DNA from: Actinomycetota bacterium
Lineage (GTDB): Bacteria; Actinomycetota; CADDZG01; WHSQ01
Reading direction: 5' to 3'
NCBI GenBank assembly: GCA_035942255.1
Contig: DASZDG010000103.1
Span: 15,540 to 79,539, forward strand
Length of the DNA stretch: 64,000 nucleotides
In this document: one piece after another, positions 40,779-62,684 of the stretch
Position numbering within the stretch: position 1 is the stretch's first letter
How the letters are laid out: each line of letters begins with the position of its first letter
Made by a program: the position numbers and the translations under genes
Notes under the pieces: generated by a model
Told to the model about the DNA's origin: nothing
Databases searched by the model: none
What the model saw: the letters and a program-made list of their open reading frames with translations, nothing else

Positions 40779-40850
40779 GCGGGCGTGGCTCAGTGGTAGA
40801 GCATCACCTTGCCAAGGTGAGGGTCGCCAGTTCGAATCTGGTCGCCCGCT
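40779..40850 (+). tRNA. tRNA-Gly (anticodon GCC), CCA not encoded
   Basis: Folded by hand into a cloverleaf: acceptor GCGGGCG/CGCCCGC, D arm GCTC-AGTGGTA-GAGC, anticodon arm TCACC-TTGCCAA-GGTGA and T arm GCCAG-TTCGAAT-CTGGT. Discriminator is U. Confidence 0.95.
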
Positions 40851-40855
40851 CGGTA
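40809..40855 (+). repeat. att core, left copy (3' 42 nt of tRNA-Gly plus 5 nt)
   Basis: Identical over 47 bp to 60012-60058. Confidence 0.9.
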
Positions 40856-40868
40856 AAGAAGCGCAGGT

Positions 40869-40890
40869 CAGGGGCCCTTTCGGGCCCCTG
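40869..40890 (+). terminator. hairpin downstream of tRNA-Gly
   Basis: CAGGGGCCC tttc GGGCCCCTG, a 9-bp stem. A diverged copy follows the second att core near 60072. Confidence 0.55.
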
Positions 40891-40921
40891 CTTCGCGTCA
40901 AGCCGAAGCTCGAAAACCCCT

Positions 40922-40942
40922 TTTGGGCCCGCATTTGGGCCA
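40922..40942 (+). repeat. paired TTTGGGCC(C/A) motifs, possible arm-type recombinase sites
   Basis: TTTGGGCCC at 40922-40930 and TTTGGGCCA at 40934-40942. Equivalent pairs are at 59881-59900 and 60124-60142. Confidence 0.4.
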
Positions 40943-41130
40943 CGGGTGTTCATTTTCCACGGTCCCAGATAGCCGGGTCGCTCGGCTGCGTTCGCGACGA
41001 AAAGTTTCACCGCCGACGCATACGTTCCCGCCGGTCTAGCGCGGGCAACCACCCGCCGAACCGCGAGGCGCCCCCGAGGTCGCCGACCGAGACGGAACCC
41101 GGGGGACGTATTCCGAAGGAGAGCGCCCCG

Positions 41131-41424
41131 ATGAAACTGGTTCGGCCGCGCGTAGGCGCGGTGCTGCGGCGGGTTCTCGGTCACCCCCACCGTCGCTCCC
41201 GACTCCGACTCAGGACGGGCGTGAAGTGCCCTCGATGCCACGAGCTCTTCCGAACTACGGTCGACAGGAGCGGGCGCATCGCTCTCGTCTGTGACAGGTG
41301 CCGAGGCCACGCGATCAACGTCGTGAATCACGCAGCTGAAAGGATTGCAGCCCCCTCGTCCGTGCCGCGACGGTTCCCGTCCTCGGGTAGGAACCGTCCG
41401 CCCCCATGGGTGCTCCGGGGATAG
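41131..41424 (+). CDS. small zinc-ribbon protein (hypothetical)
   Basis: AAGGAG lies 8 nt upstream of the ATG. CPRC-x17-CDRC. Codon bias is weaker than in neighbouring genes. Confidence 0.35.
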   Translation: MKLVRPRVGAVLRRVLGHPHRRSRLRLRTGVKCPRCHELFRTTVDRSGRIALVCDRCRGHAINVVNHAAERIAAPSSVPRRFPSSGRNRPPPWVLRG

Positions 41425-41458
41425 ACCAGAGGTCACATAGTGGGCGAGGTCGCGGGCC

Positions 41459-42697
41459 TCACGATGCTCGGGTGCGCGGCACCGTCTCGACCCGGATGAG
41501 GGCAGCGGCGCGCTCGGCGACCGCCGCGGATTCTCGTCCGCTCTCGCCGGACGTGATCACGTGGCCGATGAGGTCACCGTCCGAGGTCGGGCGCGCGACC
41601 TCGGCTCCGGGCTCCACCCACAGCTGCAGGTCCTCAACGCCCGGCACAGCCGCAGCTTCCTCGGCGCCGACGATCGCCTCGACGACGCCGTCCTCTTCGA
41701 CCCAGAGGTCGCGCATCGTGCTCGCGCGGCGAGCGCGCGGCGGCGCAACCGTGGACTCGCCGAGATAGCGCCCCAAGACGTACGCGATCGAGTCCGAGCC
41801 CGACGCGTGATCGAGACAGAGGTGGGCCCGCCCGCCGATCAGCCGAGGGTTCAGCTCGACCAGTCGCGGTCCGTCGCCCGTCGTGATCAGCTCGAGGTGG
41901 AACGCGCCGAAGTCGTAGCCGGCCGCCTTTGTCACCAGCCGCACGAAGTCGTCCGCCGCGGCGCAGGGGCGGTCTGCCGAGAACGTCGACCGCACCTCCA
42001 CGAAGTACGGGTACCCCGCGAGCACGCGGTCGGAGTACCCCCAGATCTCGACCTCGTCACCGTCGACGAAACCTTCAGCGCTCGTCAACGGCCCCCGGAG
42101 CTCCTCCTCCAGGAGCAAGACGTGCTTCGGCTCCACCCGGCCCCCATAGAGCGCGCGCTCCCGGTGAGCGCGGACCGCTTCCTCCAGCTCTCGGTCGTCG
42201 GCCACGCGCACCACGTCCCAGCTTGCAAGGCCGTCGACCGGCTTGACGACGCACGGGAAGCCGATCGGCGACGTGGGTGCGCGCTCGTCCGCGGGGACGA
42301 CCGCCCACTTCGGATTGGGGATCCCCGCCCCGTCGAGAGCGCGCCGCACCGCGGACTTGTCGCGGGCGAGCGCCGGCGCGTCCGGCGTTGCTGCGCGCAG
42401 ACCGAGGAGCCGTCCAGCCTCGCTCGTGGCGCGGCCGGTGAAGAGGTCGCTGAACGTAAGCAGACCGCGGGCGTCGGTGCCGTCGGCCGCCGCCGCCATC
42501 GCCGCAGCGGAATGCGTGTCGCAACGCCTCCACTCGTCGACGAGCTCGTGTACCCGGGCGGGATAGTTCGCCGGGTTCGCAGACAGGACGACATTCCGGT
42601 AGCCGAGCTCGCGACTCAGACGGAGCCCCTCGGACCCCGGGCTCGGGACGTCGGGCCCCGCCGGGCTGAGGTGGACCTCTACGAAGAGGACGTCCAC
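41459..42697 (-). CDS. ATP-grasp domain ligase
   Basis: FPCVVKPVDGLASWDV, LLLEEELRG and FHLELITTGDGPRLVELNPRLIGG are typical ATP-grasp segments. Confidence 0.8.
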   Translation of the reverse strand: MDVLFVEVHLSPAGPDVPSPGSEGLRLSRELGYRNVVLSANPANYPARVHELVDEWRRCDTHSAAAMAAAADGTDARGLLTFSDLFTGRATSEAGRLLGLRAATPDAPALARDKSAVRRALDGAGIPNPKWAVVPADERAPTSPIGFPCVVKPVDGLASWDVVRVADDRELEEAVRAHRERALYGGRVEPKHVLLLEEELRGPLTSAEGFVDGDEVEIWGYSDRVLAGYPYFVEVRSTFSADRPCAAADDFVRLVTKAAGYDFGAFHLELITTGDGPRLVELNPRLIGGRAHLCLDHASGSDSIAYVLGRYLGESTVAPPRARRASTMRDLWVEEDGVVEAIVGAEEAAAVPGVEDLQLWVEPGAEVARPTSDGDLIGHVITSGESGRESAAVAERAAALIRVETVPRTRAS

Positions 42698-43873
42698 GCG
42701 GGCTCCGTGCGGGGCATGGCTCGTTGCGCGTCGTCGATTGCTGCCAGGAGGGGCGGGTACGTGTTGGCCTCGCGCAGAGCGTCGAATCTCGCCCTAGCGG
42801 CATCGTCGAGCCTCCGCCTGAAAAGTCCCTCGCCCTCTTCCAGAAACACCGCGGACCACAGCGGGAACAGGCGGCCGCCGCGGGTCACTTTCGCCTCGAA
42901 CGCCTCTGTGCCCAGATGGACTTGCTCGAGGTCGTTCTCGATCGCGTACTGCAGGGGCGCGTAGAGGACGAGTGGGAAGTACGCGCCACGGACCGAGGGG
43001 TCGTCGTAGTCGAAACCCGCCGACCTCAGGAAGAGGTGACGGCCCCACCGGTACGCGAGGCAGTAGCCGATCACCGCGTCGTCGTTGTTCAACACGAACG
43101 CGACGCTGTGCCGGTTCGCTTCCTCGGACGCGAGCCGGAGGCTCTTCTCGAGAGCGCCTTCGTCGGCCGCGCTCCCGTAACGCCTCTGGACGTTGGCGAG
43201 AAGACGCGCCATGACGTTCTCGAGACCCGCTTGTCGCGTCGGCTCGATGGATAGGCCCGAGCGTTCGAAGCGTCCGATCTCACGCTTAATAGCGTTGCGA
43301 CGATCGCGGGAGAACGATCCGAGATATTCGTCAAAGGTCCTCCACTGCACCGCGAGCCGGGCCTCGAAGGTCTCCAGGTAGACGACGTAACCCCTCGGCG
43401 TCAGGACGGGCGACGCTTCCGCGGCCGCGCCGTCGGTCAGGTACATGAGTCCACAGCCGCGAGCGCCCCAGCGGCGCGCCTGCCGCTCCATCTCCTCGAC
43501 GATTCGCGTGGCGACTTCCCCTCGCGCGGCCGGAAGGGCGTCCGGGAGTAGGAGCTGGGAGCGGAAGCCGAGCCTTCCACCCCCCAGCACGAAGGGATGC
43601 AGTGGCTCTTCGACCGGCCCGCCGAGGACGCCGGCCAGGGATTCGGATGGGTCGTAGGGGGACGGCGAGGGTGCGGCCGCGAGGTAGAGGGGGAGACCGC
43701 CGGCGAACTCGTCGTCGACGACGGCCTCCACGCAGGCTTCAGGCCCACTCCATCCGCGGCCCATCGCACGCAGCCACGCGTGTGACGAGTAGAAGCCGTC
43801 GGGCGGAACGAGGCCGTCCCATTGCCCTGCCGGGACGTCGAGGATCGAGGGCGCGACGCGCGTCTCGACGCGG

Positions 43874-43887
<14 letters not shown>
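42679..43887 (-). CDS. FemAB-like / DUF482-type GNAT-fold acyltransferase
   Basis: WDGLVPPDGFYSSHAWLRAM...LYLAAAP...FDEYLGSFSRDRRNAIKRE...YCLAYRWGRHLFLRSAGFDYD...YAIENDLEQVHLGT. The GTG at 43887 is chosen, and the His-Arg repeat N-terminus of the listed ORF is rejected. Confidence 0.6.
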
Positions 43888-45232
<1,345 letters not shown>

Positions 45233-45359
45233 CTCCGCCTGTACCCCCGATGCCGCGTCATCCGTCCCCCTCTTGCGACGCCACCGGCGAGCGTAACCGC
45301 TCCTTCTTTCGCGGCCCGGGCGTGGAGTTACCCTGACGCGCCCCGACGCAGGCGTCCCC

Positions 45360-46571
45360 GTGGGAGGGCCAGGGATCGTGAGATTGGCGGAGATCCGGTC
45401 GCTCGTCCGGGTCGTCGCGCCCCGTCCAGGAGGCGCGGCGCGCCTGACCCGGATCGTCTCGATCGAAGATCTCAGGCGCGCCGCGCGCCGGTCCGTCCCG
45501 CGCGCGGTCTTCGACTCGATCGACGGCGGTGCGGAGGGGGAAGTCACGCTCCGCAGGAACGTGGCCGCGTTCGAGCGTCTCGAGCTTCTCCCTCGAATCC
45601 TGCGGGACGTCAGCGACGTCGACACGCGGACGACGCTGCTGGGGACGCCCTCCGCGGTTCCGTTCGCGCTCGGGCCCGCGGGATACACACGGGTTGCGGA
45701 CCCGTCGGGGGGCGAGCTCGCCGTAGCCCGCGCCGCGGCGAAGGCGGAGATCCCGTACTGCCTGTCCACGGTGTCCTCGACTTCGATCGAGCAGACCGCG
45801 GCGGCCGGAGACCGGATGTGGTTCCAGCTCTACGTCCAGGAGGACCGTGGCGTCACGAGGGAGCTCGTCGCCCGCGCCCGGGAGGCGGGCTACCGCGCGC
45901 TCCTCGTGACCGTCGACGCACTCGTCACGGGGGGTCGCGAGCGCGACAGGCACAACGCGTTCACGATCCCGCCTACGGTCGGCCCGCGGTCTCTCGTCGA
46001 CGCGGCGTTCCATCCGCGGTGGTGGTGGCGGTTCGTGACGAGTCCACCGGTGACGTTCGCCAACCTGGGAGATGAGGCTGCGGTTCCCGGCGTGCTGCGC
46101 GGGGTCGGTGTGTCGCCGTGGATGGTCTGGTCGGACCTCGAATGGATCGTCGACGAGTGGGACGGCCCTATTGCGCTCAAGGGCGTGATGGCCGCAGCCG
46201 ACGCCGAGCGGGCGGCCGAAGCGGGGGTCTCCGTCATCGTCTCGAACCACGGTGGGCGGCAGCTCGACCACGTCCCGGCCACCATCGAGGTGCTTCCCGA
46301 GATAGTCGACGCCGTGGGCGGACGCGTCGACGTCTATCTCGACTCGGGAATCCGCCGCGGGACCGACGTCGTCAAGGCCCTCGCGCTCGGCGCGAAGGGC
46401 GTATTGGTCGTGAGGCCCTACCTCTACGGCCTCGCGGCGGAAGGCGAGAGCGGAGCGGCGCACGCGATCGCGTTGCTCGCGGCAGAGCTGCGACGTGCGA
46501 TGGCGCACCTCGGGGCCACGAGGCTCGACGATCTCTCGCCGGAGATGGTGCGGCCCCGGGCGACCCGGTGA
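45360..46571 (+). CDS. FMN-dependent alpha-hydroxy acid oxidase/dehydrogenase (LldD / hydroxymandelate oxidase family)
   Basis: FDSIDGGAEGEVTLRRN, WFQLY and VSNHGGRQLD motifs. Confidence 0.85.
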   Translation: MGGPGIVRLAEIRSLVRVVAPRPGGAARLTRIVSIEDLRRAARRSVPRAVFDSIDGGAEGEVTLRRNVAAFERLELLPRILRDVSDVDTRTTLLGTPSAVPFALGPAGYTRVADPSGGELAVARAAAKAEIPYCLSTVSSTSIEQTAAAGDRMWFQLYVQEDRGVTRELVARAREAGYRALLVTVDALVTGGRERDRHNAFTIPPTVGPRSLVDAAFHPRWWWRFVTSPPVTFANLGDEAAVPGVLRGVGVSPWMVWSDLEWIVDEWDGPIALKGVMAAADAERAAEAGVSVIVSNHGGRQLDHVPATIEVLPEIVDAVGGRVDVYLDSGIRRGTDVVKALALGAKGVLVVRPYLYGLAAEGESGAAHAIALLAAELRRAMAHLGATRLDDLSPEMVRPRATR

Positions 46572-46582
46572 GGGGACGCCGG

Positions 46583-46879
46583 CTACGCTGGCGGTGACCC
46601 CGTCATCGCGTCGATCGCGGCCGCCGCCTCGGCGACCGTCGGGTTCTCGAAGAAGAAGCTCAAGCCGAGGTCGGCGCCGAGAGCCTCGCGGATCTGCCCG
46701 GCGATCTGCGCGGCCTTCAGCGAGTCCCCGCCGGTCTCGAAGAAGTCGTCGTGGAGGCCGACCTCGGTCCCGAAGGCAGTCGACCAGGCCGCGGCTACCG
46801 CTCCTTGGGTCGACGACGCGGCGCCGTTCCCGCCGCCGCGTGATGCGTCGTCCACCTGAACCTCCGTTCGTCCGTCCAC
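46583..46879 (-). CDS. free-standing acyl/peptidyl carrier protein
   Basis: Phosphopantetheine attachment motif FFETGGDSLKAAQI. Confidence 0.75.
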   Translation of the reverse strand: MDGRTEVQVDDASRGGGNGAASSTQGAVAAAWSTAFGTEVGLHDDFFETGGDSLKAAQIAGQIREALGADLGLSFFFENPTVAEAAAAIDAMTGSPPA

Positions 46880-47033
46880 CCTTGGCCCCGTAGCGAAGTC
46901 TAGCCCTCAAGGCACACGGGATCCCGCGGAGCGCGCGCCGTCTACAAGGGCGCGAAAAAGTCTCGAACGCCCGGTCCGGCGGGCCGTTTTGGGCCATTCG
47001 GTGTCACGGACTTGCCCACGGACATCACTCCAG

Positions 47034-47063
47034 TTGACACCGCGAGTTCGGATGCCGGATACT
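47034..47063 (+). promoter_or_regulatory. sigma-70-type promoter (TTGACA-18 nt-GATACT)
   Basis: A perfect -35 hexamer at 47034-47039 and an A2/T6-containing -10 at 47058-47063, in a locally lower-GC spacer. Confidence 0.5.
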
Positions 47064-47096
47064 TGATTGGATAGGCGTCGAACAGGAGGTGGGGGC

Positions 47097-47174
47097 ATGT
47101 CCGCAGCTGTGTTGACCGAGTCCGCGGTCCGTCCGATGGAGAGCGCGATCCTCATGGAGTCCGCGGTCCTCTAA
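47097..47174 (+). CDS. 25-codon ORF MSAAVLTESAVRPMESAILMESAVL: candidate RiPP precursor peptide or regulatory uORF
   Basis: AGGAGG at 47084-47089 lies 7 nt before the ATG. 21 of 24 sense codons after the ATG end in G/C. The peptide has a triplicated ESA(V/I) motif. It is below the 60-aa cut-off of the ORF track. Confidence 0.45.
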   Translation: MSAAVLTESAVRPMESAILMESAVL

Positions 47175-47190
47175 TCGTCTCGGCGTAGAC

Positions 47191-47210
47191 CGTCTGCCTG
47201 ATGGCAGACG
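47191..47210 (+). promoter_or_regulatory. hairpin sequestering the methyltransferase start codon
   Basis: CGTCTGCC tgat GGCAGACG. ATG 47201-47203 spans the loop/stem junction. Confidence 0.5.
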
Positions 47211-48007
47211 CTGCAAGCTTCTTCGACCGCGCGGCTACCCGCTACGAGATCGACTTCGGCGACGCCTCCGTCTGGAGCATCGCCCACCGCGTCGCCGCGC
47301 GCATTCTCGACGACCACCTCCGGGAGTCGCCGCCTGACCGCGTCCTCGACGTGGGGTGCGGCACCGGCAAATGGGGGATGCCGTTCATCCGCCGCGGCGC
47401 GTCCGTGACGTTCACCGACGTCTCGCAGAGCATGCTGGCGACGGCGGTAGGGACGGCGACCGAGCTGGCGCGCGACGCGGACGTGAGGGGGTTCTGCGTG
47501 CCCGTCGAAGCGATGTCCGGCACCGTCGGGACCGGCGCGTTCGACCTCACGCTGTGCATGGGTGACCCCCTGTCGTACTGCGGCGACCACCGCGAGGGCA
47601 TCGCGGAGCTCGTCGCCGTGACGCGGCCCGGAGGGACGATCTTCCTGAGCGTCGACAGCCGTCTCGGCTACCTGAGGGTCTTCAAGGAGCGCGACGGGTA
47701 CGACCTTCGGCGACTCCGCGAGTACCTACGGACGGGCGAGCTGATCAGCTGGGAGGACCTCCCAATCCATACGTTCCTCCCCGGCGAGCTGCGGGACGGG
47801 TTCGCGGCCGCGGGGGCGGGATGCCGCGGGCTGTGGACGCTCCCCACGGTCTCCGCGTACTTCCTCTTCGACCCCGCGTTCAGGGAGATGCTCGAGGACG
47901 AGGCGTTTCGTGAGGAGCTGACCGACATCGAGATCGAGGCGCTCGGCATGGGCCAGGCGCCCCCCGGAAGCCATCACATCTACGCGCTCTTCGTCAGGGA
48001 CGAGTGA
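47201..48007 (+). CDS. class I SAM-dependent methyltransferase
   Basis: Motif I VLDVGCGTGKWG. Confidence 0.8.
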   Translation: MADAASFFDRAATRYEIDFGDASVWSIAHRVAARILDDHLRESPPDRVLDVGCGTGKWGMPFIRRGASVTFTDVSQSMLATAVGTATELARDADVRGFCVPVEAMSGTVGTGAFDLTLCMGDPLSYCGDHREGIAELVAVTRPGGTIFLSVDSRLGYLRVFKERDGYDLRRLREYLRTGELISWEDLPIHTFLPGELRDGFAAAGAGCRGLWTLPTVSAYFLFDPAFREMLEDEAFREELTDIEIEALGMGQAPPGSHHIYALFVRDE

Positions 48008-48804
48008 AGGGCCCCCTCGGCGGCGGCCCCGGTGAGCCGCCGCACGACACCGCGTCGTTCCTCGAAGGGCTGCGAAGCATCCGGCGGTTCGACGACCGGG
48101 ACGTCCCCGACGAGGTCGTGCGCCGCGCCATCGAGATAGGACAGCGCGCGCCGTCTGCCTCGAATCATCAGCCGTACTCGGTCATCGTCGTCAAGGACCG
48201 CGGGCTCCGCCACGAGCTCGAGACCACGCTGCGGGTCCAGCGCTTCGTCGAGGACGCGCCGGTCTTTCTGGTCGTTTGCGTGGACTGGTCGAGACAGGAC
48301 GCGGTCGCGCTCGAGGTCGGCGGGCCCACGCAGATGAACCAGCTCAGCCGGCTGGTGATCGGGATGACCGATTGCTCGATCTTCGCCCATCATCTAACGC
48401 TCGCCCTGATGGCGTTCGGGCTGGGCGTGTGCTTCGTCGCGAACCCCGTGCTCGCGCTCGACGAGACCGCGCGGATCCTGTCGTTGCCGAAGATCTCGTG
48501 CGTGCCGCTGCACGTGGTCGTCGCGGGATATCCCGCCGAGGACCCTCCGTTGCGCCCCCGCTATCCGACGGACCTCGTCGTCTTCGAGGACCGCGGATGG
48601 CACCCGCCCGACGTGGACGCCGTGCGCGACTACCTGCGGCGCGGCGACGAGCGCCTCCGGGAGGAGTCCTACTTCGAGGTGACGGGTGACGACGTGGGGA
48701 CCTGGTACGAACACTACGCCGTGAAATACGGGGACCGCGCGCTGAACCGGACTTGGGCGCCGCTCGCGAGCCAGATCCTGGGCTTCCTCGACCCTCATGC
48801 GTAA
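48004..48804 (+). CDS. nitroreductase-family FMN oxidoreductase (positioned as an azoline dehydrogenase)
   Basis: RSIRRFDDRDVPDEVVRRAIEIGQRAPSASNHQPY. Overlaps the methyltransferase stop and directly precedes the YcaO gene. Confidence 0.75.
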   Translation: MKGPLGGGPGEPPHDTASFLEGLRSIRRFDDRDVPDEVVRRAIEIGQRAPSASNHQPYSVIVVKDRGLRHELETTLRVQRFVEDAPVFLVVCVDWSRQDAVALEVGGPTQMNQLSRLVIGMTDCSIFAHHLTLALMAFGLGVCFVANPVLALDETARILSLPKISCVPLHVVVAGYPAEDPPLRPRYPTDLVVFEDRGWHPPDVDAVRDYLRRGDERLREESYFEVTGDDVGTWYEHYAVKYGDRALNRTWAPLASQILGFLDPHA

Positions 48805-50877: not shown

Positions 50878-50880
50878 TCC

Positions 50881-52008
50881 TCAGGCGCGGACCAGCCGGA
50901 GCTCCTCGACCGACCGGAACCCGACACGCCGCCGCCACCTAGGGGGGTGCGCGATCGTCCACGAGCGCATGAAGATCCGCGCCCGGGGGACGAGGACGTT
51001 CATCTCCGCACGCGCCAGCGCGGCGCCGAGACAGTAGTGGGGGCCGTAACCGAACGAGAGGTGGCGTGGGGTACGTCCACCGTCGGCGACTTCGAACGAG
51101 GAGCGGTCGAGGTTCGCCGCGGCCAGGACGAGGTAGACGTGCTCGTGGTCACGCACCTCGAGCGAGCCTAGGGAGATCGCTTCCCGCGCGACGCGGCCGA
51201 CCGACTGCGCGGGCGAAACCAGCCGCAGCAGCTCGTCGATTCCTCTGGGCTCGCGTCGGGTGGAGGCGTCGCGGAGGACCGTGCCGACGAGGAAGTTCGC
51301 CGAGTTCTCGAACCCGGCGTGGAGTAGCACGGACGGTGTCACCGTTGCCTCCCTCTGGGTTACGGCACCGGACGCGCGTGCGTCTTCGAGGTGGCCGACC
51401 AGGGCGCTCGACGAGGCGAGGCTCCCGAAGCGGTCGTCGAAGTACCGCAACAGCTCGAACGACGCCCTCGACCCCGCGACGCGCTCGGACGGCTCCTCGA
51501 ACGGCTCGATCGTCGCGGTAACGCGGCGGAGCTGCGGGAGGAGCTCGTCGACCTCTTTCGCCGCGAGCCCGAGCAGACCCCCGATGATCCGCGCGGTAGC
51601 GGGCTGCGCGACGTCGGTCAGGAAGTCGATCGAGTCCCGACCTCCGACGCCCTCGATGACTTCGTCCCACGTCTGCGCGACGAAGTCGTCGAGCGACACG
51701 CGGTTCGCGCCGTGAGAGATCGCGTCGTAGACGACCTTCCGGAGGCGCGCATGCTCCGGCCCGTCCATGAACAGGAGGTTCCCCGACTCACCACTCGCCG
51801 CCGAGACCGGCCGCCGATCGGCCGCGAGCCGAGGGTCGGTGAGAAGCCCCCGGCACAGGCCGTAGTCGGCGACCCAAACCCGTCCGGCGCGGCGATCCCA
51901 TCCACCCGCGTCCGCCAAAGCCCGGTAGAAGGGGGCGGGGTCCTCGAAGAACGAATCGGGAAGCGGGTCCGGCTGCGCCTGTGGGGCAGGGGCCGCGGCG
52001 TCACTCAT
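50881..52008 (-). CDS. cytochrome P450
   Basis: Heme loop FGYGPHYCLGAALAR. I-helix-like HAGFENS. Confidence 0.85.
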   Translation of the reverse strand: MSDAAAPAPQAQPDPLPDSFFEDPAPFYRALADAGGWDRRAGRVWVADYGLCRGLLTDPRLAADRRPVSAASGESGNLLFMDGPEHARLRKVVYDAISHGANRVSLDDFVAQTWDEVIEGVGGRDSIDFLTDVAQPATARIIGGLLGLAAKEVDELLPQLRRVTATIEPFEEPSERVAGSRASFELLRYFDDRFGSLASSSALVGHLEDARASGAVTQREATVTPSVLLHAGFENSANFLVGTVLRDASTRREPRGIDELLRLVSPAQSVGRVAREAISLGSLEVRDHEHVYLVLAAANLDRSSFEVADGGRTPRHLSFGYGPHYCLGAALARAEMNVLVPRARIFMRSWTIAHPPRWRRRVGFRSVEELRLVRA

Positions 52009-52963
52009 CTACGTGCTCGAGCCACGACGCGTACTCGTCGATCTCCCCCTTGATCGCCGAGTAGAACGTCTCCTGGATCTTCTTCGTGATGACGCCGGGG
52101 CCTCCGAGCTCGTGGTCGTCGATCGAACGGATCGGGACGACCTCGGCTGCAGTCCCGGTGAGAAACGCTTCGTCAGCGACGTAGACGTCGGCTCGGTTGA
52201 GCTTCGCTTCGCGGGTGACCCATCCCAGGTCTGCTGCGATCCGTACGACCGAGTCCTGGGTGATCCCCCGGAGCGCGCCCAGTGACGCCGGGGGTGTAAC
52301 CAGCTCGTCGTTCAGCACGGCGAAGAAGTTGAGCGTCGTCCCCTCCGCGACGTATCCGCCCGGGCTGAGGAGGATCGCGTCGTCGTACCCCGCCCGGACG
52401 GCCTCCACCTTGGCGAGTGACGAGTTTATGTAGCGCCCCGTCGCCTTCGCCTGCGGGGGGATCGCGTTCGAGTCGATCAGCCGGAAGCTCGAGATCTTCG
52501 CGCGGATGCCGTTGCGGATCGCGTCGTCGCCCAGAGACGTCCTCAGGGGGAACGCGATTATGGCGACCCTGCTCTCCGAGACGAGGGGGTTCAACCCGAT
52601 CTCTCCGTCGCGCAAGAAAACGATCGGCCGGATGTAGCACGACGCCAGGTCGTTCACGCGGACGAGGTCCTTCGTCGCGGCGACGAGCTCTTCGACCGAG
52701 TACGGGACGTCCAGCGTGAGCATCCGCGCCGAGCGGTGCAGCCGCCGCATGTGGTCGGTGAGCCGGAACGCCGCGGGGCCCCGGGCGCTCTCGTAAGTCC
52801 GGATGCCCTCGTACACGCCCCACCCGTAGTGAAGCGAGGGCGTCAGGACGTGGATGTTCGCGTCGGCCCAGTCGACGAGCGCGCCGTCCATCCAGATCTT
52901 CTCGGTCTTCGCAACGGGCACGTCCGCCTCCGGAGTCCGCGGCGGCCGACCGGCCACCCCCAC
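52001..52963 (-). CDS. class IV (branched-chain / D-amino acid type) aminotransferase
   Basis: WMDGALVDWADANIHVLTPSLHYGWGVYEGIRTY...GITQDSV... An alternative GTG start is at 52921. Confidence 0.8.
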   Translation of the reverse strand: MGVAGRPPRTPEADVPVAKTEKIWMDGALVDWADANIHVLTPSLHYGWGVYEGIRTYESARGPAAFRLTDHMRRLHRSARMLTLDVPYSVEELVAATKDLVRVNDLASCYIRPIVFLRDGEIGLNPLVSESRVAIIAFPLRTSLGDDAIRNGIRAKISSFRLIDSNAIPPQAKATGRYINSSLAKVEAVRAGYDDAILLSPGGYVAEGTTLNFFAVLNDELVTPPASLGALRGITQDSVVRIAADLGWVTREAKLNRADVYVADEAFLTGTAAEVVPIRSIDDHELGGPGVITKKIQETFYSAIKGEIDEYASWLEHVDE

Positions 52964-53016
52964 CCGCGTCGCCTGCGAGAATAACCTCGTCCGGGGTCGC
53001 CGAGCGGGGGTGGACG

Positions 53017-54165
53017 GTGGACGCGAAGGAAGCGGCGCGACAGCGGTTGGAGCGGGAGCGTGAGCGGCTGATCGACCTTAGCCACCGGATCCACGCGACG
53101 CCCGAGCTTGCGTTCGAGGAGGAGCGTTCCTCGGCCTGGACGGCAGAGGCGCTGTCGGGTGCAGGGTTCGCGGTGACTCCGAACGTCGCAGGTCTGCCGA
53201 CGGCTTTCACCGCACGCGCGGGCGAAGGTCCGCTGCGCGTCGCGATTTGCGCCGAGTACGACTGCCTGCCCGGGATCGGTCACGCGTGCGGCCACAACAT
53301 CATCGCCGCGAGCGCGGTCGGAGCCGCGATCGCGGCAGCGGCCGTGGCCGACGACCTCGGCCTCACCGTCACGGTCGTGGGGACACCGGCCGAGGAGAGC
53401 GGCGGCGGCAAGATCATCCTGCTCGAGGACGGCGTGTTCGCCGGCCAGCACGCGGCGATGATGGTCCACCCGGCGCCTTACGACGCGGTCCGCAGGCCCC
53501 TCCTCGCGATGACCCAGTTCGGCGTCACGTATCGCGGGAAGGCATCTCATGCCTCGGCCTACCCGGAGCTGGGCGTGAATGCCGCCGACGCGCTGACGGT
53601 CGCGCAGACCGCGATCGGGCTCCTGCGCCAACACCTCCGGCCCGCCGACCGCGTGCACGGGATCGTCACGCATGCGGGCGACGCGCCGAACGTCGTCCCG
53701 GCGCTCGCGACCGCGACCTATCAGGTCCGAGCCACGACGGTCGACGACCTCGACGACGTCTATCGCAAGGTGAGGAGGTGCTTCGACGCCGGCGCTCTCG
53801 CGACGGGCGCGGAGCTCTCGGTCGAGGAGGCGTGGAAGCCGTACGCCGAGATGCGGCACGACGCGGAGCTCGCGACGCTCTACCGCGCGAACGCGGAGCG
53901 ATTGGGGCGCACGTTCTCCGACACGGTCGAGGCGAAACCCCCAGCGGCGTCGACCGACATGGGGAACGTCTCGCAGATGCTCCCGTCGATCCATCCCTTC
54001 GTCGGGATCGATTCGTCCCCGGCGGTGAACCACGAGCCCGCGTTCGCGGCGCATTGCGTAACGCCGGCTGCGGACAAGGCCCTGGCGGACGGAGCGCTCG
54101 GGCTCGCGTGGACGGCGATAGACATCGCCTCGGACGAATCGCTGGCGGCGCGGCTGATGGGTTAG
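53017..54165 (+). CDS. M20 family amidohydrolase
   Basis: IHATPELAFEE, EYDCLPGIGHACGHN and GTPAEESGGGK. Confidence 0.85.
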   Translation: MDAKEAARQRLERERERLIDLSHRIHATPELAFEEERSSAWTAEALSGAGFAVTPNVAGLPTAFTARAGEGPLRVAICAEYDCLPGIGHACGHNIIAASAVGAAIAAAAVADDLGLTVTVVGTPAEESGGGKIILLEDGVFAGQHAAMMVHPAPYDAVRRPLLAMTQFGVTYRGKASHASAYPELGVNAADALTVAQTAIGLLRQHLRPADRVHGIVTHAGDAPNVVPALATATYQVRATTVDDLDDVYRKVRRCFDAGALATGAELSVEEAWKPYAEMRHDAELATLYRANAERLGRTFSDTVEAKPPAASTDMGNVSQMLPSIHPFVGIDSSPAVNHEPAFAAHCVTPAADKALADGALGLAWTAIDIASDESLAARLMG

Positions 54166-55052
54166 TCGCTCGGCGAGGGCTGCGCCACCTTCGTCGCGAG
54201 GAGATCGTCGAGCGCCCCCGCAAGTCCTGGACTGACCTGTGTCAGCGGGAGGCGGCACTGCGGGGACCGGATGAGCCCCATCCGCCACAGGCAGTGCTTG
54301 AGGGGCATCGGATTCGGTTCTGCGAACAGCATCGAGACGATCGGGGCGAGGAGCTTCCACTCACGGCGCGCGCTCTCCACATCGTTCTCCCGTATGCGTC
54401 TCTCGACGCCGACGAACGTCTCCGTGGCGACGTGTGCGGCCGCGAGGATGCCTCCGGCCGCGCCGTTCGCGAGCACGGTGAAGAACTGGTTGTCCTCGCC
54501 GGTGAGCACGGCGAGCCGGTCCCCGGCGCGCGCTAGGAGGTCGGCCGTCTGAGCCAGCGAGCCGGACGAGTCCTTCACGGCGACGACGTTTCGACATGAG
54601 TCCGCGAGCGCGAGGAGCGTGTCGTTCTCGATGTTGATCCCCGTCCGGTACGGGATGTTGTAGACGATGATCGAGCGCGACGTGCTGCTGGCGACGCGCT
54701 CGAAGTGCGCCAGGATCCCGTCCTGCGGCGGACGGTTGTAGTAGGGGCATACGACGAGGTAGCCGGCGACGTCGAACCGCTCGAGGTGGTGGATCGTCTC
54801 GACGACCGACCGCGTCACGTTCCCGCTGACGCCGACGTACACCGGCGCGCGCCCCGCGACGGTCTGCACCGTCGCGTCGACGATCCGGTCGCGCTCGTCG
54901 GGAGTTATGGCGGGACTCTCACCGGTCGTGCCGAGTGGGATGACACCCGCGACGCCGGCGCGGACGTAATGCTCGATCAGTCCGACATAGGAGTCGAGAT
55001 CGACTTCGTCGTCCACGAACGGCGTGATGGCCGGCAGGTACACACCGTTCAA
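54162..55052 (-). CDS. DapA/HTPA-synthase family class I aldolase (second copy in window)
   Basis: GTTGESPAIT, YNIPYRTG and AVKDSSG. The TTG at 55052 is preceded by GGAGGAG. The rest of listed ORF 54162-56189 is antisense to the ligase gene. Confidence 0.8.
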   Translation of the reverse strand: MNGVYLPAITPFVDDEVDLDSYVGLIEHYVRAGVAGVIPLGTTGESPAITPDERDRIVDATVQTVAGRAPVYVGVSGNVTRSVVETIHHLERFDVAGYLVVCPYYNRPPQDGILAHFERVASSTSRSIIVYNIPYRTGINIENDTLLALADSCRNVVAVKDSSGSLAQTADLLARAGDRLAVLTGEDNQFFTVLANGAAGGILAAAHVATETFVGVERRIRENDVESARREWKLLAPIVSMLFAEPNPMPLKHCLWRMGLIRSPQCRLPLTQVSPGLAGALDDLLATKVAQPSPSD

Positions 55053-55132
55053 GCGGATCTCCTCCCCGCGGTCGCGTTCACATCCCTGCGCTATCGTAGT
55101 CGCCGAGTCGTCGGGGAGGGGACGAACGTGCC

Positions 55133-56674
55133 GTGCCGCCGCATCCGGCCCTGCCTCCGAGTCGAGTTGCCGGAGGTGCCGACGTGGATACCGGGTTCGC
55201 TCGCTCCCGAGATGCTGCCGGATCGGCCCTCGCACGCGCGCACCAGGTCTACCTCGAGCGTCCCGACGACCCGGCTCTCGTCGTCGACGGTCGCGACGTC
55301 CTGACGTATCGGGAGCTTCACGAACGTTCGCAAGGCATCGCGGACGACCTGCGCGGTCGCGGCCTCGAGCCCGGCGACCGGGTCCTGTTGTCGTTTGCGG
55401 CGACCGAGTGGGCATCATTCCTGCCCGTGTGGCTGGGCGTGGTGAGGGCGGGGCTGGTCGCCGTCTCCGTCTCCACGCGCTTTGCCGAGCGCGAGCTGGC
55501 CAGGGTCGTCCAAGACGCCCGGCCCGCGCTCGGGATCGTCTCGCCGTCGGGCCCGCGGCCCGTGAGCACGTCGGTCCCGCTCGTCGCCACGTCCGACGTC
55601 TACGCCGCGCCCGCGCGCACCGCCGACGCCCTCGTCGTCGAGGAGTCCGCTCTGGCCGCGATCCTGTACACCTCCGGGACGACCGGGACGACCAAAGGGG
55701 TCGCATGCCCGCACGGTTCGCTCGTCGCGGCGAGCTTCCCCGAACCGAGGCGGTCGATCCATGCGTTCCCGTTCGACGCCGCGGCGGGACAGAACGTCTT
55801 CGTGCGCGCTCTCCTCGGGTCGCCCACGCACGCGCTGTCGACCTTCGCGCCTGGCCGGTTCGTCGACCTGGTTGCCGGCCACGACATCGAGTGGGCGGGC
55901 ATCGTCCCCACCATGGGAACGATGCTCGTGCGCTCGGGTGTCCTGCACCACCGCGCCCTGCCGTCGCTCCGCGTCCTCTGTCTGGCCGGCGCGCCAAGCC
56001 CACCGGTCCTCCTCGACCGGCTGCAGCGCGAGCTCCCGGACGCCCAGATCGTGAACCACTACACGCTGACAGAGGCAGGGCCGATGTTCCTCGCGCAGGT
56101 CTACGAGCCGTCGCGTCCCACCGCGGTGGGCCCGACGAGCGGCGACGTCGAGGTGCGCGTGCTCGACGAGGGGGGCCGGGAGGCCTCACGCGGCGACGTG
56201 GGGGAGATCGCGCTGCGCGCCCGGTGGCCGACAGTTGCGCGCTGCTACTTCGGTGACGAAGAGGCGACCGCGCGCACGTTCTCTCCAGACGGGTGGCTTC
56301 GCACGGGCGACCTGGGGTTCGTGGACGAGGACGGGTTCCTGCATCTCGTCGACCGCAAGAAGGATCTCATCATCCGCGCGGGCCGGAACATCTCTTGTCT
56401 GGAGGTGGAGGCGGTCATCGCCGAGCATCCGGACGTGGCGGACGTCGCGGTCTTCGGCTTGCCGCACGACGCGGTGGGCGAGATCGTCGCGACGGCGGTA
56501 GTGCTGGAGAGACCGGTGACGGAGCGGGCTCTCCGCGACCATGTCCGCCGCCATCTGACAGAGGAGAAGGTCCCGGAGGTCGTCGTAGTGCGCGACTCGC
56601 TGCCGCGGACCGAGACGGGCAAGGTCCTGAAACGCGTGCTCGCGGCCGAAACGGCGGGACGTCTCCGGGGTTAG
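55133..56674 (+). CDS. AMP-dependent synthetase/ligase (stand-alone adenylating enzyme)
   Basis: LYTSGTTGTTKGV, GDLGFVDEDGFLHLVDRKKDLI and a terminal GKVLKR. The start may lie a few codons downstream. Confidence 0.85.
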   Translation: MPPHPALPPSRVAGGADVDTGFARSRDAAGSALARAHQVYLERPDDPALVVDGRDVLTYRELHERSQGIADDLRGRGLEPGDRVLLSFAATEWASFLPVWLGVVRAGLVAVSVSTRFAERELARVVQDARPALGIVSPSGPRPVSTSVPLVATSDVYAAPARTADALVVEESALAAILYTSGTTGTTKGVACPHGSLVAASFPEPRRSIHAFPFDAAAGQNVFVRALLGSPTHALSTFAPGRFVDLVAGHDIEWAGIVPTMGTMLVRSGVLHHRALPSLRVLCLAGAPSPPVLLDRLQRELPDAQIVNHYTLTEAGPMFLAQVYEPSRPTAVGPTSGDVEVRVLDEGGREASRGDVGEIALRARWPTVARCYFGDEEATARTFSPDGWLRTGDLGFVDEDGFLHLVDRKKDLIIRAGRNISCLEVEAVIAEHPDVADVAVFGLPHDAVGEIVATAVVLERPVTERALRDHVRRHLTEEKVPEVVVVRDSLPRTETGKVLKRVLAAETAGRLRG

Positions 56675-56679
56675 GCGGC

Positions 56680-57435
56680 TCAGCGGGACAGCACCCCGGC
56701 CCCGGCCAGCTCCTCGAGGAGGATCGGCGCGAACGCAGGGTCGTGCACGAAGAAGTGGGAGCCCGGGACGACGCGCCACCGGAAGACGCCGCCTGCGTGC
56801 GCGCCCCACGCCTCGCAGGCATCCGGCGAGACGCGTTCGTCCGCAGCTCCCGTGAACGCGAGCAGCGGACATGCGACGCGATCGCCGTCCTCGTGACGGT
56901 AGGCCTCCGCCGCGGCGACGTCGGCACGCAACGCAGGGACGAGGTCCTTCAGGATCTGCGGCTTGTTGAGGAGCTCGTTGGGGATCCCTCCGAGGCGCGC
57001 GACCGCGGCGATCAGCTCTGCGTCGGAGAGATGGCCGAACCCGGCCCCCCGCCGCGGGCGGTGCGGCGCCCTCGCACCGGAGACGACGAGGGCCGCCGGG
57101 ACAGCGCGACGCTGGAGCGCCCGCGCCACCTCGTACGCGACGACCGCCCCGAAGCTGTGTCCGTAGAGCACGAACGGGATCTCTGCGACCTGGGCGAGGA
57201 TCGGGGGCACGACCTCGTCGACGACGTCGGAGACGCGCGTCGCCGGCACGTCCCGCAACCGGTTCTGCCGCCCGGCCAGCTGCACCCCCACGACGCGTAG
57301 CTGCGGCAGACGATCGGCCCACGGCCGGTACGCGGTAGCCGGAGCACCCGCGTGCGGGAACGCGATCAAGACCGGCCGGTCCTCCGGGACGTCCTGCGAC
57401 AGGACGACGAGCGGCCGTGTCCGGCTGGGGTCCAC
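56680..57435 (-). CDS. type II thioesterase
   Basis: LIAFPHAGAPA..., GHSFGA nucleophile elbow and a C-terminal HFF motif. Confidence 0.85.
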   Translation of the reverse strand: MDPSRTRPLVVLSQDVPEDRPVLIAFPHAGAPATAYRPWADRLPQLRVVGVQLAGRQNRLRDVPATRVSDVVDEVVPPILAQVAEIPFVLYGHSFGAVVAYEVARALQRRAVPAALVVSGARAPHRPRRGAGFGHLSDAELIAAVARLGGIPNELLNKPQILKDLVPALRADVAAAEAYRHEDGDRVACPLLAFTGAADERVSPDACEAWGAHAGGVFRWRVVPGSHFFVHDPAFAPILLEELAGAGVLSR

Positions 57436-57578
57436 CGCACGAGCTTAGGTCTAGGTCCGTGACGGGGCCTTCGGAGTCGCGCGAGTATTAACTCGTGTTG
57501 CCTTGCTTGCTAACGTTCGAGTTGCAGCACTAGGCTCTCGTCAGGCGATCGAGACGCGGACGACACAGGGGGTGGGAG

Positions 57579-58028
57579 ATGCGCGCATCGCTTTCGTACC
57601 GGATGCTCCTCATGGTGGCCCTGGTCACCGGCACGACGGTGGGTGGTATAGCCGGAGCACACTCGGAGTGTTGGGTCGAGAGCCACAGTGAGGACCACTG
57701 GTACGGCGACGAGCACGCCAACACCTGCGATGCGGGAAGCGGCGGGGACAGCATGTACGGCTACGGCGACGGGGACGACCTGACCGGCGGGGGCGGCGAC
57801 GACAAGCTCCGCGGTGCGACGGGCAACGACCACCTCCGAGAGGGCCAGAGCGACGGGGACACCGACCTGTTCTGCGACGGCGACGGCTGGGACAACATCC
57901 ACATGGGCGACAGCGACGGTGCCGATCACTTCCATCGGGTCGTGGACAACCACAACGACTCGATCGATTGGAGCAGCGGCGACACGTGGCACGAGGGAAC
58001 CACCGCCCACTCCGACTGCCCTATGTAG
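57579..58028 (+). CDS. small secreted Asp/Gly/His-rich protein with RTX-like calcium-binding repeats
   Basis: Signal peptide. GDGDDLTGGGGDDKLRGATGNDHL resembles GGxGxD nonapeptide repeats. Four Cys. Confidence 0.5.
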   Translation: MRASLSYRMLLMVALVTGTTVGGIAGAHSECWVESHSEDHWYGDEHANTCDAGSGGDSMYGYGDGDDLTGGGGDDKLRGATGNDHLREGQSDGDTDLFCDGDGWDNIHMGDSDGADHFHRVVDNHNDSIDWSSGDTWHEGTTAHSDCPM

Positions 58029-58093
58029 GAGCGCGACCTTTTCCGGGCTCGGGAGTCTTTGTAGAGGGTCCCCGCAATAGGTCTAGGGAAGCT

Positions 58094-58609
58094 ATGGAAA
58101 CCGTCGAATCGATCAGAGCTGGAGACAGCTGGCGACGACGCCTCGAAGGGCTGTACGCGGCGGAGTACCCGTCGGTCGTGAAGCTCGCCTACCTCCTTAC
58201 AGGAGAACGCGACGCCGCCGAGGACGTAGCGCAGGAGGCGTTCGTCCGCCTCTTCGCGCGGTTCCAGGATCGCAAGGAACCCGAGGTCGTAGGAGCGTAC
58301 CTGCGCCGGATCGTCGTCAACCTGAGTCGCTCTCGAGTGCGGCGTCTCGTCAACGACAGACGGAAGATCGAGCGAGCCGCGAGTCTTCCGCAGCCGCCGG
58401 AGGCGGACCCGGTGAGCCCCGCGCTCACGCGCGAGCTGCTCATGAGGCTGCCCGTGCGCCAGCGGGCGGCGCTGTACCTCCGCTACTACGAGGGGCGATC
58501 AGAGCGAGAGACGGCAGAGGCGCTCGGTTGTTCGATCGGCGCCGTCAAGTCACTGGTGATGCGGGCGGCGAGGACCGTTCGTTCCGAAGAGGGAGGTCGA
58601 GATGGATAA
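58094..58609 (+). CDS. ECF-type RNA polymerase sigma factor
   Basis: Region 2 (AEDVAQEAFVRLF) and region 4 (RQRAALYLRYYEGRSERETAEALGCSIGAVKS). Confidence 0.85.
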   Translation: METVESIRAGDSWRRRLEGLYAAEYPSVVKLAYLLTGERDAAEDVAQEAFVRLFARFQDRKEPEVVGAYLRRIVVNLSRSRVRRLVNDRRKIERAASLPQPPEADPVSPALTRELLMRLPVRQRAALYLRYYEGRSERETAEALGCSIGAVKSLVMRAARTVRSEEGGRDG

Positions 58610-59579
58610 CGAGTTCCGGGATCGATTGAAGAGCCTCGTCGACTCCGGTCCACAGCCGGATCCGAGCCGTGGCTCGTTGCCCGCGCTCGAGCGTCGCATC
58701 GCGAGGCGGCGCCCGGTATGGGCCGCCGGGCTGGCTGCGGTCGTGATGGCAGTGGGCGCCGCCGGCTTCGTCGCCGGCGAAACCGTCCTCCGGAGCTCCA
58801 GGTCGGCGACGCCGTCCGAGGGAAGGATCGCCCCGGCTCAGCAGGGTCCGGCGGAGCAGGGGCAGGAGGGCCGCGAGGAGGCGCGCGTCATCGCCTCGGG
58901 GCAGCGCGATGGCCGGGGATGGGAGCTTCGAGGCTTCCGCGCTGAGGCCGCCCGGAGTCCTCGACCGCTGTGCCTCGAGTGGGTCCAGCCGCCGGTCGAC
59001 ACGGGCGGCACGGCCTGCACGACCGACCTCTCCGAGGGACTCCCCTCGGGTGAGCTCTTGGTCACGCAGACGGCCGACAGCCCGTTCTTCGGGGAAGTCT
59101 CGCCTGACGTAGCGCGCCTCGAGATCCGCGCCGAGGACGGGACCGTCAGCGTCGCCCGGATCGTCGACGCGCCACGGGCACTCGACGTCCCGTATCACTT
59201 CTTCGTCGGTTTCAATACCGGATCCGGCGACATGACGCTCGTCGCGCTGGACGAGGACGGCAACGTCCTGGAGGAAGAGGTCCATGCCGCCCTGCCGCTC
59301 CTGCTCGTCGAGAAGGACGGTGACGGATCGGGACGCGTCTCGGGCTACTCGACCGAAGAGGCGCAATGCGGGTCCGAGTGTCCCGAGGCCACGCGCTGGA
59401 TCGACTGTGGGGACGTCTGCGCGGTCGAGCTGGACGACGCGACGATCACGCTCGAGGCGGAGCCCGAGGACGGGTCGGTGTTCGTCGGATGGTCGGGAGC
59501 GTGCCAGGGCACGGGGCCATGCACGATCACCGTCGACTCCGATCGAGTGGTGGTCGCGACGTTCGAGAGCGCTCCCTAG
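58602..59579 (+). CDS. membrane-anchored protein, probable anti-sigma factor
   Basis: 8-nt overlap with the sigma gene. One TM helix after about 45 aa. C-terminal repeat-like FVGWSGAC...GPCTITV. Confidence 0.5.
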   Translation: MDNEFRDRLKSLVDSGPQPDPSRGSLPALERRIARRRPVWAAGLAAVVMAVGAAGFVAGETVLRSSRSATPSEGRIAPAQQGPAEQGQEGREEARVIASGQRDGRGWELRGFRAEAARSPRPLCLEWVQPPVDTGGTACTTDLSEGLPSGELLVTQTADSPFFGEVSPDVARLEIRAEDGTVSVARIVDAPRALDVPYHFFVGFNTGSGDMTLVALDEDGNVLEEEVHAALPLLLVEKDGDGSGRVSGYSTEEAQCGSECPEATRWIDCGDVCAVELDDATITLEAEPEDGSVFVGWSGACQGTGPCTITVDSDRVVVATFESAP

Positions 59580-59880
59580 AAGCGTCCCAATCGCAGAGCC
59601 GGTCACCGGACCGGCCCCATAGATCGCGCTGCCCGCCGGGGACGGACTCGTCCCCGGCGGCCCGCGTGCGCAGCGTAATGGTTCGAACCAATCAACGATG
59701 CCGAGGCCATAGCCGGAGTGACGAGTCGCGTCTGGAGTCCTGGCGCGTGGCAGGCGTGCCCGGCTCGATGTCGCCACGTATCCCCGCGTAGATTCTTGCC
59801 GGTGATACCCTGGCCACGTCGTCGGAGCAGATCTTTCGTCATGTGGCTGCCTCGCCGGGAGCCGCAACGTCAGATAACGA

Positions 59881-59900
59881 TCTGGGCCACATTTGGGCCA
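59881..59900 (+). repeat. paired TCTGGGCCA / TTTGGGCCA motifs about 110 nt inside the right att core
   Basis: TCTGGGCCA at 59881-59889 and TTTGGGCCA at 59892-59900. Confidence 0.4.
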
Positions 59901-60011
59901 CATCACTCCTGATTCCTGCTGTATCTGGGTGGCTATTGGTGACAGCAAAAACCAGCCGTCTACCTGCGGAACGCGGAATCGGCGCAGGTCAGGGAGACCG
60001 GTTCCAAGTCT

Positions 60012-60058
60012 TTGCCAAGGTGAGGGTCGCCAGTTCGAATCTGGTCGCCCGCTCGGTA
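60012..60058 (+). repeat. att core, right copy (orphan 3' half of tRNA-Gly)
   Basis: Identical over 47 bp to 40809-40855. The tRNA 5' half is absent here. Confidence 0.9.
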
Positions 60059-60123
60059 GAGAAGTGCAGGAGCAGGGGCCCCAAAGGGCCCCTGCTTCGC
60101 GTCAGGAGGACGCTCGAAGACGT

Positions 60124-62681: not shown

Positions 62682-62684
62682 CCG

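Follow-up and report, generated by a model that had tools for sequence, protein, structure and literature searches.

The window analysed in this study, a stretch of 64,000 nucleotides (nt) taken as a whole, comes from contig DASZDG010000103.1 of an uncultured Actinomycetota metagenome-assembled genome (MAG) whose lineage is known from a single sample. It contains one tRNA gene according to ARAGORN, a tRNA-Gly(GCC), and we show that 19.2 kb of biosynthetic DNA lie between this intact gene and an exact, displaced copy of its 3′ part. With the intact tRNA on the left and the displaced 3′ copy on the right, this geometry supports the view that the locus carries the scar which site-specific integration typically leaves in a tRNA gene when the anticodon loop is the sublocation used. 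The features that define the ends of the island are given below in window coordinates, GC standing for G+C content and GC3 for G+C content at third codon positions.

40779..40850, plus strand: intact tRNA-Gly(GCC) (Rfam RF00005, 70.6 bits, model positions 1-71; ARAGORN 40779-40851)
40809..40855, plus strand: left copy of the 47-nt core repeat (attL core), which opens at the anticodon loop, closes 5 nt beyond the tRNA 3′ end and doubles as the 3′ part of the tRNA
40856..41048, plus strand: left arm of the island (P′-like), from alignment and motif searches, ~79% identical to 60059-60244
59580..60011, plus strand: right arm of the island (P-like), non-coding, with motif TGGGCCACATTTGGGCCAC at 59883-59901 and no protein-family match in any frame
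60012..60058, plus strand: second core repeat, 47 nt, a displaced tRNA 3′ part without the 5′ half, with arm-like motifs on both sides
60059..60244, plus strand: arm-like flank of the next segment, homologue of 40856-41048 from alignments and motif
60245..64000, no strand: beginning of region B, which is a further segment of foreign composition (GC 0.61-0.68, GC3 0.71-0.90) and runs on beyond the window for 8.7 kb or more

The 47-nt string TTGCCAAGGTGAGGGTCGCCAGTTCGAATCTGGTCGCCCGCTCGGTA is identical (47/47) at 40809-40855 and 60012-60058 in direct orientation, against a chance expectation of about 1e-16 for an exact 47-mer pair in the 64 kb. Since the anticodon occupies 40811-40813, the repeat starts at the first base of the anticodon loop. 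A 28-nt probe for the T-arm and acceptor, with up to three mismatches allowed, matched at the two repeat sites only in the whole window. No second copy of the 30-nt 5′ half of the tRNA was found in the window, where the best other match (20/30) is background, and neither ARAGORN nor Rfam called a second tRNA there. An independent assembly of the same sample (Logan contigs, k=31, run SRR12473535) is interrupted at both copies. One contig (L091) stops at window position 40826, 30 nt into copy 1, and at copy 2 one contig (L093) ends at 60058 and another (L002) starts at 60029, 30 nt inside. Because these breaks fall k-1 = 30 nt into the repeat or at its end, a true two-copy repeat of at least 31 nt is present in the reads. 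The string match and the Logan breaks bear out the preliminary description of this DNA, which had placed an exact 47-bp direct repeat of the tRNA-Gly 3′ half at these positions, and its statement that 60012-60058 lacks a tRNA 5′ half agrees with the two negative searches above. It had also named a finding that would speak against integration, a larger duplication that includes a full second tRNA; a diverged duplication of ~235 nt is indeed present, but no second tRNA is in the window.

The similarity between the two sites continues past the core. It amounts to 57/59 identical positions up to 40867/60070 and to 70-85% identity per 20-nt bin from there until ~41048/60244, and is random thereafter, so the repeat is the perfect core of a diverged duplication of ~235 nt with ~79% identity over the ~190 nt past both copies. 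A step from 47/47 to 70-85% fits a recombination core with diverged homologous arms rather than a duplicated segment that decays uniformly. Directly after the tRNA, the left arm contains a GC hairpin, CAGGGGCCC-tttc-GGGCCCCTG, at 40869-40892, with its counterpart at 60071-60094. The block CTTCGCGTCA is common to both homologous flanks, as is a conserved block TCACCGCCG..GCATACGTT.CCGCCGG, which lies at ~41003-41040 in the left arm.

Moreover, a tandem half-site motif, TGGGCC-N5/6-TGGGC, occurs exactly three times in the 64 kb, always on the plus strand, and no further copies were found in the 12 kb beyond. One copy (TGGGCCCGCATTTGGGCCAC, 40924-40943) lies 73 nt past the tRNA end and another (TGGGCCATATCTGGGCAC, 60126-60143) lies 72 nt past the equivalent point of copy 2. 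The remaining one (TGGGCCACATTTGGGCCAC) starts at 59883, 114 nt before copy 2, in otherwise unique DNA and in the same orientation as the other two, so that the second core has motif copies on both sides and the first core on its right side only. The 12-mer CATTTGGGCCAC is shared by 59890-59901 and 40932-40943, for which the chance expectation between two 250-nt arms is ~0.02, and local alignments of the right arm to the two right-hand flanks at the motif beat 293/300 and 300/300 shuffles. The arrangement implies that the two island ends, once joined through the core, would give back an attP-like site whose arms carry similar motifs as direct repeats, and this is how the arm-type sites of tyrosine integrases are usually laid out. 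The second core itself reads as a putative internal attP-like junction, because arm-like motifs flank both its sides.

To the left of the tRNA, the window carries the conserved housekeeping genes ribF, pnp, an M16 peptidase gene, dapB, dapA, the RNase J gene (rnj), ftsK, rimO and cinA, together with recA, recX, rny, miaB, hflX, lexA, nrdJ, nrdR and dut, and then a gas-vesicle cluster with core-like codon usage. The gas-vesicle cluster (gvpA, F/L, G, O, K and DUF378) is complete and stands directly left of the tRNA. It contains a 241-nt direct repeat of 92% identity (39323-39563 and 40118-40358), which corresponds to two gvpA-type genes of 130 and 162 aa, and its gene order, including an open reading frame (ORF) of 49-51 aa, recurs in distant relatives without the tRNA. 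GC3 is 0.868 in the island genes and 0.929 in 28 core genes of the left flank (Mann-Whitney p = 8e-7).

On the right-hand side of copy 2, the sequence deviates more than the island does, with a GC of 0.61-0.68 and a GC3 of 0.71-0.90 over at least 12 kb, to the end of the public contig. Since this DNA is more atypical than the island, the second repeat is not a border between foreign and native DNA. Most likely, therefore, it does not adjoin native chromosome, and the 19.2 kb are one unit of a composite tandem array. The genes of region B within the window include the following.

60501..62681, plus strand: 726-aa protein with a HEMGH motif
62685..62987, minus strand: partner protein of ~99 aa

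Further genes of region B are an MGMT-like gene and a DUF429 gene. The 726-aa protein had no match in Pfam, NCBIfam, PHROGs, PADLOC or the PDB sequences; its family shows an invariant HEMGH(x5)H-type motif of the metalloprotease type. It has more than 1500 homologues at E <= 1e-5, of which the best 120 listed are 51-68% identical, and those named among the matches listed include homologues from Brocadia, Deltaproteobacteria, Ignavibacteria, Chloroflexi and Geodermatophilus. The ~99-aa partner adjoins the homologue in four of the five contexts examined (including L087, L088 and L095), and the two genes appear to form an uncharacterised two-gene module that is patchily and horizontally scattered, as judged from these matches. 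No tRNA, att-like DNA or integrase was found near the homologue on the contigs that carry it (L087-L089, L094 and L095). The 726-aa gene was considered as a novel recombinase and ruled out by its invariant HEMGH metalloprotease-type motif and its lack of tRNA association. At the end of the public contig there is a 1319-aa protein with an N-terminal adenylation domain (L001 20951-22181, equivalent to 71.4-72.7 kb of the window); the contig ends inside it, and the low-GC DNA downstream of the island therefore holds a second locus that resembles those for nonribosomal peptide synthetases (NRPS).

The 19.2 kb between the repeats are pure cargo, made up of a YcaO/NRPS-like gene cluster and a pair of genes for an extracytoplasmic function (ECF) sigma factor and an anti-sigma factor. 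No integrase, excisionase, relaxase, translocase, transfer or phage families were found in Pfam, NCBIfam and PHROGs searches of the island ORFs and of six-frame fragments from the non-coding ends of 603 bp and 432 bp, nor were remnants of an integrase pseudogene found in these ends, which gave a weak zinc-ribbon match only. The hallmarks of ICEs (integrative and conjugative elements) and their actinomycete counterparts (AICEs), that is, an integrase with a type IV secretion system or an FtsK-like Tra protein and replication genes, were likewise not found in 40856-60011, and the sole FtsK of the window is the housekeeping gene at 8882-11254. PHROGs searches, which covered 10 of the unannotated proteins and end-region ORFs of the island and region B, matched only the major facilitator superfamily (MFS) transporter, and this to a family of unknown function. 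No phage structural, packaging or regulatory genes were found in the proteins so scanned, and phage genomes gave no match either. The att region, when compared with plasmids and phages by BLAST, matched in the tRNA only or not at all.

As in cis-mobilizable elements (CIMEs), attL and attR are both kept, here as perfect cores with arm-like flanks that share motifs; among the marks of a tRNA island, the intact tRNA, the displaced 3′ fragment and the deviating composition are present and an internal integrase gene is missing. These results agree with the preliminary description in that housekeeping synteny (the ribF-dut gene set and then the gas-vesicle cluster) lies left of the tRNA, that everything between the repeats is accessory (the Pfam assignments being biosynthetic, transport or sigma/anti-sigma) and that no intact integrase or excisionase is found there by Pfam, NCBIfam and PHROGs on the ORFs and on the six-frame fragments of the end regions. 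The tRNA-targeted insertion of 19.2 kb that it had proposed stands in its attL/attR-type geometry, its cargo and its GC3, and has to be amended on the right, where the repeat is not the border between island and chromosome. It had also suggested a comparison of k-mer and codon-usage composition, which agrees with the proposal in the lower GC3 of the island but gave a small tetranucleotide shift.

It seems probable, all things considered, that 40856-60011 is a decayed, CIME-like, cargo-only island which, at a tRNA hotspot, stands in tandem with a further foreign segment. An integrative element would have entered the tRNA-Gly(GCC) gene through site-specific recombination of the tyrosine-recombinase type, with the crossover in the anticodon-loop region. 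The 3′ half that the working tRNA gene now has (40809-40850) would have been donated by this element, and the old 3′ half would have been shifted downstream by 19.2 kb, to its present place at 60012-60058. Probably the target was not naked chromosome, the tRNA being already trailed by an earlier related segment, region B (from 60059). Recombination between the incoming attP and the resident attL would have given the order tRNA-core-P′(new) ... P(new)-core-P′(old). Tandem accretion would then explain why arm-like DNA lies to either side of the second core, with the P arm contributed by the island and the P′ arm by region B. The new unit would lack recombination and transfer genes either through loss or from the outset. 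Such an island would not be self-mobile, and it could be excised or carried only by a cognate integrase encoded elsewhere.

Several points weigh against this account. In tetranucleotides the island is only slightly shifted (r = 0.97-0.98 versus 0.97-0.99 in the core), the arm motif is short, and looser scoring leaves no significant similarity between the arms beyond it. The view of region B as a former element rests on its composition and its arm-like flank, and no integrase, transfer genes or third core copy were found in the 15 kb available; neither a third decayed tRNA fragment upstream of copy 2 nor a right end of region B was found. Moreover, all data come from one environmental population. 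Look-ups of exact proteins from the flank and the island returned the same population only (ENA ERZ27247910 and Logan SRR12473535), and an empty site, an excised circle or an integrase-bearing related element was not found in the collections searched. The failure to find an empty site follows from the fact that the lineage is known from one sample; we infer the integration from anatomy and composition, and likewise infer the kind of recombinase, the sequence of events, the origin in tandem and whatever mobility may remain. A scan of genome contigs with the GvpA protein, a query that is too conserved, returned 80 distant gvp loci, none of them syntenic with the tRNA and one with an unrelated tRNA match. 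The nearest GvpF/L homologue, on a contig of 1.9 kb, is 75% identical, and in gvp relatives at a greater distance (L084 and L085) the cluster has no tRNA beside it. DNA pattern scans with the att flank and the arm motif found nothing in metagenome contigs or viral contigs.

It is possible, though unlikely, that only one integration took place and that its site was native. Region B would then be GC-poorer chromosome and 60059-60244 the original sequence downstream of the tRNA, and the attP would have captured the tRNA 3′ end and its flank from a related former host, for example through imprecise excision. The shared flank does open with a hairpin where a tRNA terminator would sit, region B has neither a mobility gene nor a right-hand att copy in 15 kb, and a second element of the family was found nowhere in the scans made. 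However, the flank right of copy 2 shares TGGGCC..TGGGC with the unique right arm of the island, which is unexpected for the flank of an attB, and no other part of the contig is as foreign in composition as region B, which begins with a horizontally scattered gene pair.

An origin without site-specific recombination, through the ~235-nt duplication or a truncated tandem copy of tRNA-Gly, with the 19 kb acquired or rearranged in between and the 47 nt kept by gene conversion, would account for a homology that exceeds a typical att core and for the lack of any recombinase. We regard it as improbable, in view of the sharp step from 100% to ~79% at the end of the tRNA plus 5 nt, which is unlike uniform decay, and of the arm motif that lies beyond the duplicated piece, on the opposite flank of copy 2. 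In addition, a second 5′-half remnant was found nowhere in the window, and the repeat starts exactly at the anticodon loop, which is reportedly the preferred crossover sublocation of tRNA-targeting integrases. Finally, the contig could be an assembly artefact that joins two genomes via shared tRNA-Gly 3′ sequence, so that flank and island would not be contiguous in any cell. GC3 changes across the tRNA, the only assemblies are short-read metagenome assemblies of one population, and the k=31 assembly does not bridge the repeat. Yet the exact repeat of 47 nt (57/59 when extended) is much shorter than the k=141 of the bridging assembly (contig names k141_...), and the ENA and Logan contigs have the same structure despite three single nucleotide polymorphisms (SNPs). 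A chimeric join would leave one shared copy and not a tRNA fragment lacking its 5′ half after unique DNA, and even with a chimeric left join the island would still be bounded by tRNA-Gly and its fragment, all of which makes an artefact highly improbable. The SNPs are single-base substitutions at 32672, 36401 and 55996 that distinguish the window from the ENA and Logan contigs, the island structure being identical; the window is therefore a separate assembly or a strain variant.

Within the presumably decayed, CIME-like island, the left arm is followed by a spacer and then by the cargo genes, as follows.

41049..41458, no strand: non-coding spacer from the arm to the first cargo gene; no gene called on the public contig
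41459..42697, minus strand: ATP-grasp enzyme like L-amino-acid ligases (Pfam LAL_C2 3.6e-20, ATP-grasp_4)
42679..43887, minus strand: FemAB-like protein (aminoacyl-tRNA-dependent transferase family), 402 aa (Pfam FemAB_like 2.8e-13)
43874..45232, minus strand: MFS exporter (Pfam MFS_1 9e-39; NCBIfam MFS families)
45378..46571, plus strand: flavin mononucleotide (FMN)-dependent alpha-hydroxy-acid dehydrogenase/oxidase (Pfam FMN_dh 3.4e-132)
46583..46855, minus strand: stand-alone carrier protein, PP-binding (precomputed Pfam PF00550, public contig)
47098..47175, plus strand: candidate 25-aa precursor/scaffold peptide MSAAVLTESAVRPMESAILMESAVL, inferred, with a GGAGG ribosome-binding site 7 nt upstream
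47201..48007, plus strand: S-adenosylmethionine (SAM) methyltransferase, first of a three-gene operon (Pfam)
48004..48804, plus strand: nitroreductase-family protein, same operon as the SAM methyltransferase (Pfam)
48805..50877, plus strand: YcaO, 690 aa, end of the methyltransferase/nitroreductase operon (Pfam)
50881..52008, minus strand: P450-like protein (Pfam)
52001..52921, minus strand: class IV aminotransferase (Pfam)
53017..54165, plus strand: M20 peptidase (Pfam)
54162..55052, minus strand: protein of the dihydrodipicolinate synthase (DHDPS) family (Pfam)
55184..56674, plus strand: stand-alone adenylation enzyme (Pfam)
56680..57435, minus strand: type II thioesterase (Pfam)
57579..58028, plus strand: 149-aa protein with weak similarity to Ca-binding (RTX-like) repeats (NCBIfam)
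58094..58609, plus strand: ECF sigma factor (Pfam Sigma70_r2/r4_2)
58602..59579, plus strand: anti-sigma-like protein (NCBIfam antisigma 8.7e-5)

The left spacer contains an ORF of 97 aa (41131-41424, plus strand) with two CxxC pairs and a weak Zn_ribbon_TFIIB match (7e-4); it is accepted by no gene caller and its codon bias is not coding-like. At the overlap of the minus-strand FemAB-like and MFS ORFs (43900-44008) there are five copies, at 80-100%, of the 12-nt repeat GCGGTGGCGGTG, a low-complexity coding repeat that is possibly a source of length variation.

Among 5.8 billion proteins, the YcaO of the island has one homologue only, of 38% identity, on another contig (L086). There, the YcaO homologue is followed by an ORF of 42 aa (2732-2860, plus strand) that consists of eight tandem (M/W)ESA(I/V) units, so that a small (M)ESA(V/I)-repeat ORF adjoins the YcaO genes in both known clusters of this type. 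A repeat ORF of the MSAAVLTESAVRPMESAILMESAVL type may encode a multi-core precursor or scaffold peptide of an undescribed pathway that combines YcaO with carrier-protein, adenylation, ATP-grasp and M20 functions. It is conceivable, although we consider it doubtful, that the island is still mobilizable and represents a recombinase-free cluster cassette of an undescribed tRNA-Gly-targeting family in uncultured Actinomycetota. In that case a helper integrase would move the cluster, which would explain why the core and the arm motifs were kept, and the cargo would possibly be a new hybrid of NRPS and RiPP pathways (RiPP, ribosomally made and post-translationally modified peptide) built on a tandem (M)ESA(V/I) scaffold peptide.

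The locus matters as a complete and apparently very rare natural-product cluster that is parked at a tRNA hotspot as a unit with att sites at its ends, in an actinobacterial lineage that has hardly been sampled. In practical terms, the exact att boundaries define a natural 19.2-kb cloning unit for heterologous expression, and the exact junction sequences allow reads to be searched for excision (attB and attP). The (M)ESA(V/I)-repeat ORF adds interest to the cargo, not to the mechanism of the island. There are documented cases of tRNA-bounded islands, of CIMEs, of tandem accretion and of units of this kind that carry natural-product clusters. With tRNA integration, CIME decay and tandem accretion so well documented as mechanisms, the general lesson is confirmatory and not new.

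Actinobacterial tRNA genes serve as attB for the actinomycete elements pSAM2 and SLP1, and mycobacteriophage L5 integrates in a tRNA-Gly gene. The island resembles these elements in its tRNA attB, in a core identity of ~40-60 nt and in putative arm-type integrase sites in attP, whereas it has no int, xis, rep or tra and its match to phage and plasmid sequences is limited to the tRNA. The yersiniabactin high-pathogenicity island (HPI) and the colibactin pks island sit at tRNA-Asn genes. In the case of PYG1, a tRNA-integrated island of Pyrococcus yayanosii, the repeats are 44 bp of tRNA-Gln (PMC9897764). Such Islander-type islands (PYG1, HPI and pks) share with the present one a complete tRNA at one end and a direct repeat of a ~45-nt 3′ fragment at the other, and like it they have an atypical composition and a cargo that is accessory or biosynthetic, but they carry their own tyrosine integrase, usually beside the tRNA, and the island described here has none.

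For the architecture proposed here there are precedents. CIMEs and tandem accretion at att sites are known, for example, from ICESt1 and a CIME of Streptococcus thermophilus (for review see PMC5704250). Here, the 15 kb available show no partner ICE or integrative and mobilizable element (IME) that encodes a cognate integrase, and a functional, ancestor-type relative of the island was not found in the scans; however, the att-type repeats at the 3′ end of the target gene, the lack of integration and transfer genes and the tandem foreign segment across an internal att site are the same. As summarized in PMC8369830, which cites Zhang and Loria 2017, TR1 of Streptomyces scabiei is a 20-kb thaxtomin CIME with an internal att site between it and the ICE TR2. 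According to that summary, the target of TR is the aviX1 gene and TR2 is a demonstrated ICE with experimental transfer, whereas the island described here has tRNA-Gly as its target, a 47-nt core and an uncharacterised neighbour. In both cases, an actinobacterial, att-bounded unit of ~20 kb, free of an integrase and given over entirely to a natural-product cluster, has an internal att site between it and a second acquired region.

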